Below, in pieces: positions 6,906-14,147 of a stretch of DNA of 16,382 nucleotides. Under the pieces are notes generated by a model. The model did not search any database and was not told the origin of the DNA. It saw only the letters and a list, made by a program, of their open reading frames with translations. Numbering within the stretch: the first letter of the stretch is position 1; each line of letters opens with the position of its first letter. The translations under genes and the position numbers were made by a program. Origin of the DNA: a virus; the UHGV virus genome UHGV-0181023, one strand, 5' to 3'.

Positions 6906-7595
6906 CTAACCAAATCTGTTTATATTGAATGGTACTGATGAGATCACTTTAGACTGGATATAAAGCAGAGCTAACCCCTCTTTTTCGATGCTCCATGGTT
7001 GATAATTGGGGTTATCAGATAACACCATGATTTTGCTTCCAATTTTTTGAAGTCTTTTCACGTAGCATTCTCCATCAAAACAAAATGCATAAATGCCATC
7101 GCCATCAAAATAAGTTACTGTCTTATCAAGAAAAAGAAGGTCGCCAGGTGAGATTGTGGGAGCCATACTGTCTCCTCTGGCGTTACCTATTTCTATATTT
7201 TTGAATGCCCGATTTCCAACAAGGCGTCGGGCATATTCAGGATCAAGTTCTATTGAGCGCACTACATCTATCAAGTCACCACGGACATGAGTTCCATCAC
7301 CGCAACTAAACTCAACATCAAGGACATTAAACACGACGCTATCTGTTCTTGTCTGGTGTTTCTCTTGCGAGGAAAAGGTTGGTGAGGAGTCTTCACCTAA
7401 GAACCAGGATTGTGGATAACCGCTAATCTCGGATAAATGCGCGAGCTTATCACTCCGTGGAAATGTTTTTCCTGTTGTCCAGTACTGCACTGATTGCGCA
7501 CTCACACCTAACTTGCGGGCCAGTTGAGCCTGAGTCCATCCTTTTGCTTTCAGCATCGCGGCTATTCGATTTTCCGTGTTTTTGACGTTCTTCAT
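6906..7595 (-). CDS. cI: CI-type prophage repressor (N-terminal HTH, C-terminal LexA-like S24 peptidase domain)
   Basis: HTH GWTQAQLARKLGVSAQSVQYW; peptidase motifs GDSMAPT (Ser) and YVKRLQ (Lys); ORF track lists a TTG at 7601, ATG at 7595 preferred; divergent from the cro-like gene. Confidence 0.9.
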   Translation of the reverse strand: MKNVKNTENRIAAMLKAKGWTQAQLARKLGVSAQSVQYWTTGKTFPRSDKLAHLSEISGYPQSWFLGEDSSPTFSSQEKHQTRTDSVVFNVLDVEFSCGDGTHVRGDLIDVVRSIELDPEYARRLVGNRAFKNIEIGNARGDSMAPTISPGDLLFLDKTVTYFDGDGIYAFCFDGECYVKRLQKIGSKIMVLSDNPNYQPWSIEKEGLALLYIQSKVISSVPFNINRFG

Positions 7596-7728
7596 GACCA
7601 AATCCTGTGGGTTTCTTTACAAGGATAAATCTTTACTTGATTTTAGTGTATTCGATCCTTTTGCAACTTGCATGTTAATTTAAACTTGATGTATTCTTGA
7701 TTTATAAAGTTAATGTTGGTGCTTTGTT
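7596..7728. promoter_or_regulatory. immunity-region operator/promoter intergenic region (PRM/PR analog) with three direct copies of an ACTTGAT-type motif
   Basis: 133-bp AT-rich spacer between divergent repressor and cro-like genes; motifs at 7635..7642 (ACTTGATT), 7684..7691 (ACTTGATG), 7695..7702 (TCTTGATT); candidate PR elements TTGATG (7687..7692) and TAATGT (7711..7716). Confidence 0.6.
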
Positions 7729-8001
7729 ATGAAAGGAAATGATTACGACAAACTTCGTGCATTAATTGCGCAAAATGCCATAGCGCGAAATCTTGGTGTG
7801 ACGCCGCAAGCGGTGAATCAGTGGTTTTCAAAAAACACAATTCCTGCTCGTTTCGTTTTACGCGTATGTGAAGTAGTTGCATGGAAGGTCACGCCACATG
7901 GCTTAAGGCCAGATCTTTATCCTCACCCTGAAGATGGAATTCCTGATTCGTTACGCAAAATTTCAAATCCAAGCTTAGCGCACACAGAGGACGAGAAGTG
8001 A
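7729..8001 (+). CDS. cro: Cro-like regulator of the YdaS/Cro-CI HTH family
   Basis: 90-aa ORF divergent from the repressor; motif LGVTPQAVNQW...LRPDLY resembles Rac YdaS-type Cro analogs. Confidence 0.8.
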   Translation: MKGNDYDKLRALIAQNAIARNLGVTPQAVNQWFSKNTIPARFVLRVCEVVAWKVTPHGLRPDLYPHPEDGIPDSLRKISNPSLAHTEDEK

Positions 8002-10343: not shown

Positions 10344-10564
10344 TCCGCCACATCGTTAATTCCCTGTATCACCGATACAACCGTTGCCCCCGTGTGGGGC
10401 AGTGGTTCGCCACCAGCAACGGTCACGTTCTGCGGGTTTGCCTGGTCAACGCTGAAAGCCAGAAAGTCGTGTGCGAACTACAGGGGCGTAGCTACACCAT
10501 CAGTTACCCTCTGGCGGTATTTCTGTCTGGAAAAATGTTTAAGCGTCTGGGAGGTGTGGCGTGA
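10340..10564 (+). CDS. hypothetical small protein, 74 aa
   Basis: ATGA overlap with upstream stop; GGAGGTG upstream. Confidence 0.6.
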   Translation: MIRHIVNSLYHRYNRCPRVGQWFATSNGHVLRVCLVNAESQKVVCELQGRSYTISYPLAVFLSGKMFKRLGGVA

Positions 10565-10860
10565 ACTGTTTTCAGTTTGTGTGCGGATGTGCTTTCGATA
10601 ACCCGATTCAGCGCCTGATTATGTTGCGTGTTTTGATGTCGGGTTCTTCAGACGGTGAAGGCGAGAGAGTTATTGATCATCAGGTGCTTGCTGATTTCTG
10701 CTGTTGTTCTAAGCAAGCGATATTCAGGGAAACCCTGGCACTGGAAAGAGCTGGTTATCTTCATATCCGAAAAATTGCAACGCTTACTATTGATGCAAAA
10801 GCCAGACTACAACCTGCGCGTGGCTACACAATTCTCATGCCGCGGAAGGAGGTTGTATGA
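10561..10860 (+). CDS. hypothetical protein, 99 aa, Cys-rich N-terminus and possible HTH; GTG start
   Basis: GTGA overlap with upstream stop; GGGAGGTG 4 nt upstream; stop overlaps the start of the replication initiator gene. Confidence 0.55.
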   Translation: MNCFQFVCGCAFDNPIQRLIMLRVLMSGSSDGEGERVIDHQVLADFCCCSKQAIFRETLALERAGYLHIRKIATLTIDAKARLQPARGYTILMPRKEVV

Positions 10861-11861
10861 GCCGTTACGCCCCCACACCGGAAGTTATGGCTATTGGTCA
10901 AATTAATATTTCCGGCAATGTTACACCTGCGAACTGGTGGAAATATATTCGACTACCCAGTGGGCGTCCGGATGCGACGGCTATCGCTCTGCTTTCAGAG
11001 ATCGTTTACTGGTACCGCCCGACAGAGGTCAGGGATGAGCACACCGGAGCGTTGCTGGGATATCGCAAGCGTTTTCAGGGCGACAAACTGCAAAGAAGCT
11101 ACCAGGCGTTTGCTGAGCAGTTTGGTTTCGGGAAAAGGGAAACCGCAGATGCGCTGAAGCGTCTGCGCGATGCAGGGTTTATTACTCTGGATTTACGCAC
11201 GGTGGAAATGCTCGATGGGGTGAAATGCAGCAATATTTTGTTTGTCGGGATCAACCCACAGGCAATTGCGGCCATCACCACACCTTCTTCTGTTTCGCCA
11301 GAAAGTAACAGCAATAATGCAATCAGCGATACAGCTATTACGTTAAAACGGAACACCCCCCGACGTCATAACGGAACAGGGGATACGCCGAATGTTGATA
11401 CAAATACAGAGATTACTACAGAGATTACTACAGAGATTACAACGGAGACTAAAAACACTATTGATGCATCCGCTGACGCGTCTGCGCCAGCGCGTTCTGC
11501 CCGACAGGAATATTCACCGGAATTTGAACAGGCCTGGCAGGAATATCCCAAACGTGCTGGTGGCAATTCCAAGTCAGCAGCCTTCAAAGCCTGGAAAGCC
11601 CGTATCAGGGAGGGAATAAAACCGGAGACCATGCTTGATGGCGTGAAGCGGTATGCCGCCTGGGTACGTGCTACAGGAAATACCGGCACACAGTTCGTGA
11701 AGCAGGCCGCGACGTTCTTTGGACCCGATCGTCACTTCGAAGATTACTGGCAACAGCCAGCCGCTCACGGAGGTGGGCGACAGCGACAGGTCGATGTCCT
11801 GGCTGGCCTGGGAGCCATGTCTGACAAATTCGGTAAATCCAGTAACAAATTGACATTCTGA
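10857..11861 (+). CDS. replication initiation / replisome organizer protein (lambda O-like architecture with iterons inside the linker-coding region)
   Basis: 334-aa ORF, ATG preceded by GGAAGGAGG; internal 12-bp tandem repeats encode TEITTEITTEITTETK; immediately followed by DnaC-like and DnaB-like genes. Confidence 0.8.
   Translation: MSRYAPTPEVMAIGQINISGNVTPANWWKYIRLPSGRPDATAIALLSEIVYWYRPTEVRDEHTGALLGYRKRFQGDKLQRSYQAFAEQFGFGKRETADALKRLRDAGFITLDLRTVEMLDGVKCSNILFVGINPQAIAAITTPSSVSPESNSNNAISDTAITLKRNTPRRHNGTGDTPNVDTNTEITTEITTEITTETKNTIDASADASAPARSARQEYSPEFEQAWQEYPKRAGGNSKSAAFKAWKARIREGIKPETMLDGVKRYAAWVRATGNTGTQFVKQAATFFGPDRHFEDYWQQPAAHGGGRQRQVDVLAGLGAMSDKFGKSSNKLTF
11406..11453. repeat. candidate replication-origin iterons: four tandem 12-bp units (ACAGAGATTACT x2, ACAGAGATTACA, degenerate ACGGAGACTAAA)
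   Basis: Read directly from sequence; two copies of AACGGAACA at 11347..11355 and 11370..11378 lie just upstream; location inside the initiator gene parallels ori-lambda inside O. Confidence 0.6.
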
Positions 11862-11871
11862 GGTGACAGCG

Positions 11872-12750
11872 ATGATGACGATTGACCAACGTGAGAAACA
11901 AACAAGACTACAGGCGCGAATGGATGAGTTACGGGCAGAGATTGCATTTGCTCAGAAGGGCGAAAAGCCATGGCCTTATCGTTCCTGCCTGATGCGTGAA
12001 GGTCACGGATATTGCGAAAAACACGGTAAATATCGTACGCATATACTGGTGTGGATCGATCGTAATGGCGAGGACAGAGAAAAAATTTCATGCTGCCCTG
12101 ACTGCTTGATCGCTGAGGCCAGTGATTTGACCATGGAACTGTCGTCCCTCAAGGCGGAAGAACTGACTGATAACGCCGGAATTGCTCTGCGTTTTCGGGA
12201 CTGCGAGTTTGATAATTATCTGGAGGTTAATCCTGACGCAGCCAGAAATCTTGCGGCCTGTCGCCGCTATGCGGAGAACTGGCCAGATATGCTGGAGAAC
12301 GGTACCAGTCTTGTTATGACCGGCAGTTGCGGTACCGGGAAAAATCATCTGGCGGTATCAATGGCAAAACACATCATCCGTAACTATCTGGCCAGTGTGG
12401 AGATCACCGACGTGATGCGCCTTACCCGGGCTGTGAAAAACTGCTGGCGGAATGACAGTGAAAAAACAGCGGATGACGTCATTGAGCATTATGCGTCACT
12501 GGATTTGCTGATTGTCGACGAAGTCGGCGTTCAGTTTGGCAGTGCGGCTGAAATGGCCATTTTGCAGGAAATTATCAATGCCCGGTATGAGGGTATTTTG
12601 CCAACTATCCTGATCAGCAACCTTTCACCGGAAGAATTGTGGGCGTTCATCAGTCCCCGGATTGCCGACAGGATCACCGATGGCGGGCGCAACTGGTTGT
12701 CGTTTAACTGGCCCAGCTACCGTTCTCGTATCGGAGGTGTTGCCGCATGA
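11872..12750 (+). CDS. dnaC: DnaC/IstB-like AAA+ helicase loader with a Cys-rich N-terminal extension
   Basis: Walker A GSCGTGKNHLAVSMA and Walker B LLIVDEVG; ORF-track start is GTG at 11863, ATG at 11872 preferred (GAGGTG 7 nt upstream); N-terminal cysteines C-x8-C...CC-x2-C; ATGA overlap with the helicase gene. Confidence 0.8.
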   Translation: MMTIDQREKQTRLQARMDELRAEIAFAQKGEKPWPYRSCLMREGHGYCEKHGKYRTHILVWIDRNGEDREKISCCPDCLIAEASDLTMELSSLKAEELTDNAGIALRFRDCEFDNYLEVNPDAARNLAACRRYAENWPDMLENGTSLVMTGSCGTGKNHLAVSMAKHIIRNYLASVEITDVMRLTRAVKNCWRNDSEKTADDVIEHYASLDLLIVDEVGVQFGSAAEMAILQEIINARYEGILPTILISNLSPEELWAFISPRIADRITDGGRNWLSFNWPSYRSRIGGVAA

Positions 12751-14147
12751 CCAGCCAGAACACCCCGGCATGGCGTAACGATGACCTGGAAGGCGCTGTC
12801 ATCGGTGCGTTTTTTCTGCGTGGGGCCGATCCGGAAGTGATGGATATTCTGGCCACACTTCCGGCGGATGTATTTTTTGTGCGTCAGTACCGGGATATTT
12901 ACGCGGGGATTTGCAGACAGGCTCGCATATCCGGCGTCATTGACCCCGTACTGCTGTGCAATGAGATGCCGGAACTTGCCCCGGTGATTACCGACACCGG
13001 ACGCAAAACCTGGGTGAAGTCTTCACTGGAGCACTATGTCGCAGCGTTGCGGCGCAATGCCGCACTGCGCGATGCAGAAAAAACACTGACTGAAGCATTA
13101 CAGAATTTACGTGATGCGTATACCTGTGAAGCAGCCGAGGGCGCCCTGAAGGATGCGCAGAACATGATGGCCTCACTGTCGACCGGAAAGGGCGTCATTC
13201 AGCCGGTTCACATTGATGATGTCCTTCCGGAAGTGGTCGACCGTGTTGAATGCCGCAATCAGGGACTGGAGAAATCCAGGGCGCTGATGACCGGTATTGA
13301 TGAACTGGACGCAAAAACGGGCGGTATGGAGCCCGGAGACCTGGTATTCATTGCCGCCCGTCCTTCGATGGGGAAAACCGAACTTGCGCTGGACATCATC
13401 GACAAGGTGACTGAGCAGGGGCATGGCGTGCTTCTGTTCACCATGGAGATGGCGAACATCCAGATTGGTGAACGTATGGTGTCTGCTGCCGGTGGAATGC
13501 CGGTATCCCGTCTTAAGTCTGTTGCCCGTTTTGAAGATGAAGACTGGGCGCGTTTCTCGCAGGGCGTGGGACGAATGACGGGGCGTAATATCTGGATGGT
13601 GGACCAGGCAAACCTGACCATTGATGAGATATGTGCAACCACGAAGCACCACCGGATGAAACACCCGGAAACGGCGCTGGTGGTGGTCGATTACCTCGGC
13701 CTGATTAAAACCCGCAGCACGGGGCGTCACGACCTTGCGGTGGGGGAAATCTCAAAGGGACTTAAAAGCCTGGCAAAATCCGGCGGTTTTCCGCTGATTG
13801 CTCTGAGCCAGCTCTCCCGCGGCGTGGAATCCAGACCCAATAAACGCCCAATGAACTCGGACCTGAAAAACTCCGGGGAAATCGAGGCGGATGCCGACAT
13901 CATTCTGATGCTTTACAGGGATGAGGTATACAACCCGGAAACTCAGGCCAGAGGCATAGCAGAAATCAACATCACGAAACAGCGTAATGGCACGCTCGGG
14001 ACCATTTACCGGCGTTTTCATAACGGACATTTTCTGCCTGTGGACCAGGAGAGTGCCCGGGTTCTTTCCACACCCATGACGCCGGGCAATCCGCGCAGAT
14101 ACAGCAATAACCGCATGTCGGGCAGTAAAACGGAGCGTTTATTTTGA
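12747..14147 (+). CDS. dnaB: DnaB-family replicative DNA helicase
   Basis: 466 aa; Walker A ARPSMGKTELAL; SGEIEADADIILMLYRDEVY resembles the DnaB motif SGxIEQDAD...YRDE; GGAGGTG upstream. Confidence 0.9.
   Translation: MTSQNTPAWRNDDLEGAVIGAFFLRGADPEVMDILATLPADVFFVRQYRDIYAGICRQARISGVIDPVLLCNEMPELAPVITDTGRKTWVKSSLEHYVAALRRNAALRDAEKTLTEALQNLRDAYTCEAAEGALKDAQNMMASLSTGKGVIQPVHIDDVLPEVVDRVECRNQGLEKSRALMTGIDELDAKTGGMEPGDLVFIAARPSMGKTELALDIIDKVTEQGHGVLLFTMEMANIQIGERMVSAAGGMPVSRLKSVARFEDEDWARFSQGVGRMTGRNIWMVDQANLTIDEICATTKHHRMKHPETALVVVDYLGLIKTRSTGRHDLAVGEISKGLKSLAKSGGFPLIALSQLSRGVESRPNKRPMNSDLKNSGEIEADADIILMLYRDEVYNPETQARGIAEINITKQRNGTLGTIYRRFHNGHFLPVDQESARVLSTPMTPGNPRRYSNNRMSGSKTERLF

Follow-up and report, generated by a model that had tools for sequence, protein, structure and literature searches.

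The phage genome UHGV-0181023, analysed here as one stretch of 16,382 nucleotides (the window), carries an initiator gene of 334 amino acids at 10857..11861 (+) in which a candidate replication origin lies. Its product matches PHROG 270 'replication initiation protein' (E 6e-78), and the closest database proteins carry the name 'replication protein'. The gene is followed by those for a DnaC/IstB-like AAA+ helicase loader (11863..12750, +; Pfam IstB_IS21 4e-14 and Bac_DnaA 1.3e-5; PHROG 50, 3.9e-87) and a DnaB-like replicative helicase (12747..14147, +; Pfam DnaB_C 7.8e-74; PHROG 19, 5.6e-115). A prior inspection of these letters, the sequence-only reading, had recognized a phage replication initiator, four tandem 12-mers at 11406..11453, two AACGGAACA repeats upstream of them, and the position of both in the linker-coding part of the gene. 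All of these observations hold, the repeats being real in every detail by Tandem Repeats Finder and exact counts. Comparative anatomy likewise supports an origin inside the initiator gene, although the roles of the two repeat kinds appear to be the reverse of those first assigned.

The 12-mer array was detected as a period-12 repeat at 11405-11448 (3.7 copies, 93% matches, score 74), and at 11406-11453 it consists of (ACAGAGATTACW)x3 plus one degenerate unit. The individual units are ACAGAGATTACT at 11406 and again at 11418, ACAGAGATTACA at 11430 and the degenerate ACGGAGACTAAA at 11442. At two or fewer mismatches, ACAGAGATTAC occurs 15 times in the window where 3.6 occurrences are expected, a number reached by none of 200 shuffles; there are only three exact copies, all of them tandem. 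The array is translated in frame as TEITTEITTEITTETK, residues 184-199 of the open reading frame (ORF). Directly before it, at 11400..11405 (+), sequence comparison reveals an ACAAAT junction that is conserved in this N-domain subfamily, and GACAAAT or ACAAAT also stands directly 5′ of the array in Chloroflexota, Clostridia, Bacillus and Xenorhabdus loci. A short palindrome, CGCTGACGCGTCTGCG, lies just 3′ of the array at 11471..11486 (pair I5 of an inverted-repeat search, no strand assigned). No sigma-70 promoter or terminator was found at the array, an Rfam search returned no relevant family there, and DnaA boxes are absent within about 900 nucleotides (nt) of it (the nearest is at 12432) and not enriched in the window.

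The second repeat, AACGGAACA, has exactly two copies in the window, at 11347 and 11370, which are 23 nt apart and part of a longer 16-nt repeat with 88% identity (repeat family D10). Considered alone the pair is only modestly above chance, with 9 occurrences at one or no mismatch where 4.3 are expected, a count that 4 of 200 shuffles attain, so its weight derives from comparison with relatives rather than from window statistics. Counted from the ATG, the copies have offsets of 490 and 513 and so differ in reading frame, which makes them a DNA repeat and not a peptide repeat. Initiators of the same subfamily from Xenorhabdus and Serratia carry four palindromic repeats with a 23-nt period, TTACGTTGAAACGTAA or TTCCGTTGAAACGGAA, the last of which adjoins GACAAAT and the array in the same place as in the window. 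By this comparison the AACGGAACA repeats, which the sequence-only reading had treated as accessory, are the right halves of real type-specific palindromic iterons.

Iteron 1, TTACGTTAAAACGGAA, is an imperfect palindrome (ACGTT / AACGG) at 11338..11353 that is homologous to the Xenorhabdus and Serratia iterons. Iteron 2, CGACGTCATAACGGAA, follows 23 nt later at 11361..11376 in another reading frame, with the 23-nt period seen in relatives. Our own alignment suggests a degenerate third iteron, TACGCCGAATGTTGAT, at 11384..11399; this is a weak and uncertain candidate, which preserves a phasing of 22-23 nt and agrees with the last iteron of the Xenorhabdus locus L143 at 9 of 16 positions. None of the three is assigned to a strand. 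The dyad symmetry of the iterons points to dimeric binding of the kind described for lambda O (PMC5043065), and we infer that they are sites for dimers of the N-terminal winged-helix domain of the initiator.

A search for the subfamily in IMG/VR gave only near-identical E. coli prophages, and among 80 E. coli prophage loci of the same family the iteron sequences are almost invariant. The number of array units is not: 66 loci have three, ten have four (the allele of the window), two have two and one has five. The remaining locus showed no unit, but its sequence ends about 140 nt past the N-domain match, and the array region is probably not covered. Protein relatives of the initiator correspondingly differ in length by steps of four amino acids.

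Both repeat kinds fall between two folded domains. The N-terminal winged-helix domain (amino acids 25-142; 10929..11282, +) is modelled by AlphaFold with predicted local confidence scores (pLDDT) of 74-86 and carries the motif LSEIVYW with Tyr51-Trp52. Its best fold matches are winged-helix proteins, DnaD-N included, none of them significant (E >= 0.013), and these weak matches identify the model as a generic winged helix only. The linker (amino acids 143-217; 11283..11507, +), which holds the whole candidate origin, is predicted to be disordered, with pLDDT below 50 and also given as below 40 for the same residues. A helical C-terminal domain follows (amino acids 218-285; 11508..11711, +), with pLDDT of 60-75 and helices at 221-285. 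The PHROG matches of the protein include 'DnaD-like helicase loader / primosomal protein' families, and by analogy the C-domain is predicted to recruit a helicase or helicase loader.

The gene had also been called O-like. This is correct for its architecture, but no Pfam family, Phage_rep_O included, matches the protein at E <= 0.01, and by Pfam it is not a lambda O homologue; weak O-like PHROG matches (391 and 678, E 3.5e-7 and 6e-5) stand beside the strong match to PHROG 270. The protein fits instead a layout that we refer to as the YW-type organiser, comprising an N-terminal winged helix with the motif [LF]x[QE]hxYW, a disordered middle and a helical C-domain. Instead of being named as replication proteins, many relatives of the initiator carry the labels 'DNA-binding protein', 'helix-turn-helix domain-containing protein' or 'GntR family transcriptional regulator'.

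The pattern of conservation indicates that the array is, with high probability, selected as DNA. When the peptide TEITTEIT was sought with any codons, nearly all loci returned use ACA-GAG-ATT. Per-position statistics were compiled from 72 units, with one representative per iteron family among the IMG/VR matches listed. Of the synonymous positions, the third is A in 71, the sixth G in 70 and the ninth T in 69 of the 72 units (96-99%), whereas the non-synonymous position 8 is T in only 56 and thus is less conserved than the synonymous sites. Position 12 of the unit is T or A about equally.

Relatives chosen independently of the array, from gut metagenomes by N-domain protein similarity alone (about 60% identity), show the same preference. 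The sequence ACA AAT ACA GAG AWT AC is kept in place in all ten lineages that could be read by script, with AAG for GAG in one. In the nine lineages with Glu, the codon of the first unit is always GAG and never GAA, while GAG accounts for a share of 0.33-0.62 of Glu codons across the same ORFs. The peptide itself varies (TENT, TKIT, TETT, HEIT) while the ACAGAGA..TAC core persists. Moreover, three intact initiator ORFs from two clades read the array in another frame, namely those of a Lachnospiraceae metagenome-assembled genome (MAG) (L137; YRDYHRDY), a related gut contig (L328; TENTYRDYNTDY) and Thermoanaerobacter thermocopriae (L156; DYYRDYYRDYN). In two related IMG/VR contigs with a G+C content (GC) of 0.37-0.39, L083 and L015, a TGA stop lies directly 5′ of the array. 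Synonymous sites are thus not free and the frame is not single, as they would be in a variable-number tandem repeat of peptide. The TEIT peptide would be a tolerated by-product of the array DNA.

The initiator of L083 (0-810) and L015 looks split, with a short N-terminal ORF that ends about 280 nt before the array and iterons in the gap; a RecT-like gene is next.

The array is distributed far more widely than the iterons of any one subfamily. A blastn search with 70 nt around it yields matches of 85-95% identity, which fall within genes for replication initiators in phages of Acinetobacter, Bacillus, Klebsiella, Staphylococcus, Erwinia, Geobacillus, Pseudomonas, Pantoea and Providencia, and on plasmids of Bacillus, Nostoc, Clostridium and Marinobacter, among others. 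When IMG/VR was scanned for exact matches to the pattern, at least 120 contigs were returned, and the layout was read in at least 100 unique contexts, where it is constant: direct repeats, a gap of 0-12 nt, (ACAGAGATTACW)2-5 and the coding sequence of the C-domain. Clustering of the 100 nt upstream reveals that at least 25 unrelated iteron families precede the array in IMG/VR, in genomes with a GC of 0.31-0.62. In a scan of GTDB with one genome per species there are 38 exact matches against about 0.07 expected by our own calculation, and most share this architecture. Judged by record titles, their sources are Pseudomonadota, several classes of Bacillota, Cyanobacteriota, Chloroflexota, Planctomycetota and Acidobacteriota. 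An Stx2 phage and a Klebsiella phage have obvious iterons spaced about 20-24 nt apart, such as GGGGAAAGTCCATTCCG, directly 5′ of the same array, and their N-domains are unlike that of the window.

On the Nostoc flagelliforme plasmid pNFSY08 (L131, 2330-2540), about eight GGTGAAATTCCCAAAAA-like iterons precede a 12-mer array inside the gene of a 469-amino-acid 'hypothetical protein', with dnaB next. This looks like an unannotated initiator and origin on a megaplasmid of a cyanobacterium.

Some motif matches were rejected. Those in a giant-virus MAG (L007), a Nostocales chromosome (L135), an archaeal MAG (L144) and a Saprospirales MAG (L139) belong to unrelated repeat proteins with NRDY or TEIT repeats, without iterons or a YW domain, and would be false positives for motif-based origin finders. 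Such proteins are the only exact tandem copies outside an initiator context in the GTDB scan, in which chromosomal origins as such were not checked. We found no description of the 12-mer as an element distinct from iterons in the searchable literature, although older subscription papers were beyond reach and a prior description is possible.

What the array accompanies most faithfully is the winged-helix core of the initiator. Among the IMG/VR matches listed, each of the 23 families whose N-terminus could be read has the motif [LF]x[QE]hxYW upstream of the array, as do 32 of 39 further loci, the other seven being unrelated repeat proteins, non-coding or truncated. The N-domains of the 23 families align as one superfamily at 15-25% identity with Tyr51, Trp52 and Gly64 invariant. 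Conversely, the array is absent from lambda O and P22 gp18, which are of the Phage_rep_O type, and from L17 of phiP27, which is of the HTH_36 type. Phage phiP27 has the C-domain of the window without the array and carries instead two AAAACATGATCCGCAAG copies, 24 nt apart; its HTH_36-type N-domain comes with GACCCTTCAGAATCTG-like iterons of its own (L172, 860-905). A correlation of the array with the C-domain was considered and rejected, as the array occurs with Phg_2220_C, DnaB_2 (DnaD-like) and unclassified C-domains. Because the YW winged-helix core is its only constant companion, recognition of the array is most economically ascribed to the initiator itself.

Low duplex stability does not account for these observations by itself. 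The GC of 0.333 at 11400-11459 is the minimum of the initiator gene, and only 2.8% of 24-nt segments within 500 nt on either side are less stable than the array. In genomes with a GC of at least 0.44 the array is among the least stable 2-10% of such segments. However, in low-GC genomes (0.31-0.41) 20-50% of nearby segments are less stable, and thus easy melting alone cannot explain the conservation; its retention must be explained by sequence-specific recognition. Neither strand of the array is predicted to form a hairpin or other single-strand structure (minimum free energy of 0 for both).

In one setting the iterons and the array are found apart from any initiator gene. The 8.4-kb Bacillus rolling-circle plasmid pBSG3 (L130, NC_014104.1, 700-845) carries three to four iterons (CCTACAGGGAAA...) and three 12-mers upstream of the plasmid rep gene, without an initiator ORF, and its relatives are alike (H122-H124, H133-H135). 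The only ORF across this stretch has 63 amino acids, a TTG start and the array in another frame, and we regard it as spurious. This part of the plasmid matches the iterons and array in the initiator gene of phage PM1 at 79% identity over 121 nt. Such a cassette could be a decoy against phage or a means of amplification by phage.

Both edges of the array also coincide with mosaic joints. In megablast comparisons with phage genomes, Stx-converting phages match the gene of the window only from 11405, the start of the array, and phiP27 and PhiR49_2 only from about 11457-11459, just past it; both breakpoints recur in E. coli genomes. The C-module of the window is joined to at least three N-modules, including those of phiP27 and the Stx phages, and its N-module is also joined to other C-modules. 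The breakpoints lie at these edges because the conserved sequence of the array gives way on either side to a module that has diverged, and in our view module exchange at the array is a consequence of its conservation and not the reason for it.

These data bear on several ways of accounting for the array. The sequence-only reading had taken the four 12-mers for the iterons bound by the N-domain of this initiator, with the AACGGAACA repeats as accessory sites, and the array is indeed the most conspicuous repeat in the gene and sits in the linker as the lambda iterons do. We now consider this assignment improbable, as one and the same array is found after at least 25 unrelated sets of iterons beside N-domains that are 15-25% identical, and the Stx phages share it despite having another N-domain and their own iterons directly upstream. 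Its units recur every 12 nt head to tail, whereas the iterons neighbouring the array in this class recur about every 20-24 nt, and a unit length and spacing of about 17-24 nt in helical phase would be expected of iterons. In relatives of the same family, moreover, the position of the AACGGAACA repeats is taken by four palindromic iterons. It is still less probable that the array matters as protein only, being a flexible TEIT hinge whose DNA identity reflects slippage and shared ancestry. Such a hinge would agree with the predicted disorder of the segment, with copy-number changes in steps of four amino acids and with the TEIT frame of 120 of the 122 exact matches listed, all three frames being open. 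It would leave unexplained why synonymous sites are more conserved than the non-synonymous site, why the first unit uses GAG (AAG in the Lys lineage) in all ten readable lineages against a background of 33-62% GAG, and why the ACAGAGA..TAC core outlasts changes of the peptide. Nor does it fit the RDYY frame of L156, the YRDY frame of L137 and L328, the array directly after a stop in L083 and L015, or the array without an initiator ORF on pBSG3.

An unlikely proposal, but the strongest of the alternatives, is that the array is a recombination linker for swapping origin-specific N-modules and host-specific C-modules, kept through the viability of the resulting mosaics. The breakpoints at both of its edges (11405 in Stx phages; about 11457-11459 in phiP27 and PhiR49_2) and the varied partners of both modules are as this proposal predicts, but breakpoints at a conserved island are an expected by-product of any function. 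Second-order selection of this kind cannot fix synonymous sites across phyla between which phages have no contact, phiP27 has the same C-module but no array, and the array is kept on a plasmid that has no initiator gene to shuffle. The least probable alternative places the function in RNA or translation, with the array acting as a regulatory site in mRNA or as a ribosome pause site that allows the nascent initiator to bind in cis. Lambda O acts preferentially in cis, and the array is nearly always transcribed in the initiator mRNA. Against this proposal are the lack of an Rfam match and of structure on either strand, codons that are not rare, a reading frame that differs in three loci, and the ORF-less copy on pBSG3.

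We therefore favour a model in which the array is a DNA element of the origin. That 11338-11453 is the replication origin of this lambdoid E. coli prophage is a prediction in which we have considerable confidence, though slightly less than in the selection of the array as DNA. The fuller account, in which iterons and a DNA-level array that acts in opening together make up a prophage origin at about 11338-11453, is the best explanation available and somewhat favoured by the evidence. The particular role of the array in origin opening or helicase entry is tentative, its chances being slightly below even. According to this model, the origin would comprise type-specific iterons followed by an array that is independent of iteron specificity and common to all initiators of one winged-helix superfamily with an invariant Tyr-Trp, taking the place of the AT-rich segment of lambda. 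Initiators assembled on the iterons would destabilize or open the adjacent array, and one of its strands would be captured in a sequence-specific manner, for which the conserved core of the initiator is the most plausible agent. The C-domain would then recruit the DnaC-like loader and the DnaB-like helicase of the phage. The use of the array as a variable-number repeat and as a junction for the exchange of N- and C-modules would be side effects.

Several observations weigh against this model. The window has two clear imperfect palindromes and one weak candidate where relatives have four. There is no universal downstream partner, the next gene being DnaC-like in only 31 of 69 loci. All carriers belong to one N-domain superfamily, and deep common ancestry therefore contributes to the distribution; likewise, independent lineages are fewer than loci. 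Some of the frame-shifted cases are metagenome assemblies, the array has no exceptional instability in the low-GC genomes noted above, and its 12-nt period is not in helical phase. Finally, replication, binding and unwinding at the site are all inferred.

An origin inside an initiator gene is textbook knowledge, and another example in an E. coli prophage is ordinary. What is unusual is a second origin element that stays nearly the same DNA across phyla while iterons and proteins have diverged almost beyond recognition, in hosts that span enterobacteria, Bacillus, Staphylococcus, clostridia, cyanobacteria, Chloroflexota, Planctomycetota and Acidobacteria. A more general hypothesis, which we offer as a speculation with the odds against it, is that YW winged-helix initiators of phages and plasmids use a two-part origin code. 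Fast-evolving iterons would confer specificity, and the invariant ACAGAGATTACW, held across at least six phyla, would be read by the Tyr-Trp core as duplex or single strand to open the origin, a system open to parasitism by pBSG3-type plasmids with a PM1-type cassette. If the array is an opening or helicase-entry site, it would offer a portable, sequence-defined handle on origin opening by non-AAA+ initiators. It would also serve as an easy marker in the annotation of phage origins and of initiator genes, many of which are labelled 'hypothetical', 'DNA-binding protein' or 'GntR regulator', explain the placement of mosaic joints in the initiator gene, and suggest how small plasmids borrow phage replication machinery or act as decoys for it.

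Other features of the window belong to the early region of a lambdoid prophage. These are a CI-like repressor gene (6906-7601, -), a Cro-like gene (7729-8001) and two Rha/antirepressor-like genes. Between the divergent cI and cro genes, a tandem repeat with an 11-nt unit, CTTGATGTATT x1.9 at 7685-7705, is a possible operator repeat. Upstream of the initiator gene, an ORF of 99 amino acids (10561-10860, +) matches the N-terminal part of PHROG 4617 'replication initiation protein' (E 2e-29), and its stop overlaps the initiator start codon (ATGA). It may encode a small winged-helix accessory protein or be a remnant of another initiator N-module.

The arrangement of the window agrees with known origins in several respects and departs from each of them in others. 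In lambda, O bound to iterons opens an adjacent A+T-rich region where the helicase is loaded (PMC5043065). The ori-lambda sequence consists of four 18-bp iterons and a 38-bp A+T-rich segment inside gene O. The origin of the window similarly lies within the initiator gene, at the link between a DNA-binding N-domain and a putative helicase-recruiting C-domain, and has palindromic iterons with a spacing of about 20-24 nt, the last of which is adjoined downstream by a low-stability segment. The arrangement likened to ori-lambda in the sequence-only reading is thus present, with iterons followed by a low-stability segment inside the initiator gene as in lambda and P22. Unlike in lambda, the initiator is outside the Phage_rep_O family, and the lambda segment CACAAAAGACACTATTACAAAAGAAAAAAG is purine-asymmetric and not a tandem 12-mer. 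The window also has a phage DnaC-like loader and a phage DnaB-like helicase, where lambda uses P with host DnaB.

The P22 origin in gene 18 (rep_origin 32840-32984) likewise has mid-gene iterons followed by an A-rich repeat, and its DnaB-type helicase is phage-encoded, as in the window. However, gp18 is of the lambda-O type and the post-iteron segment is ACAAAAGACAATAT x2, not ACAGAGATTACW. P22 shares with the window only the 10-mer ATACAAATAC (window 11397-11406), which is in the equivalent place but may be a chance match. Lambda (L132, 519-567) and P22 (L133, 925-965) share CACAAAAGACA(C/A)TAT(T)ACAAAAGA directly after the last iteron. The post-iteron segments of lambda, P22 and the window may be distantly related or alike by chance. 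For phage L, the genome paper describes four repeats of about 20 bp.

The array also resembles the unwinding elements of oriC and RK2 oriV, in which 13-mers are repeated in tandem and their exact sequence is important; once the region is open, one specific strand is usually captured (PMC5043065). As in those elements, two to five head-to-tail units of 12-13 nt stand beside initiator-binding repeats, sequence matters beyond A+T content, and in each family inspected 0-12 nt separate the last iteron from the first array unit. The 13-mers of oriC and RK2 are replicon- or host-specific and not interchangeable, whereas the 12-mer is the same across phyla and iteron specificities. The window also differs from these origins in having no DnaA boxes near the array, and an unwinding role for the array is predicted only.

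A further likeness is to the DnaD-like or SPP1 G38P-like replisome organisers of phages and the lactococcal phage origins within rep genes, which have an N-terminal winged helix and central low-complexity origin repeats. Many of these organisers have a DnaD-like C-terminal domain (Phg_2220_C or DnaB_2), in contrast to the protein of the window, which has no Pfam match. According to the family description of TIGR01714, the low-complexity region results from direct repeats in the DNA that can serve as an origin. When carried on plasmids, origins of this kind are known to interfere with phage, which is termed the Per phenotype.

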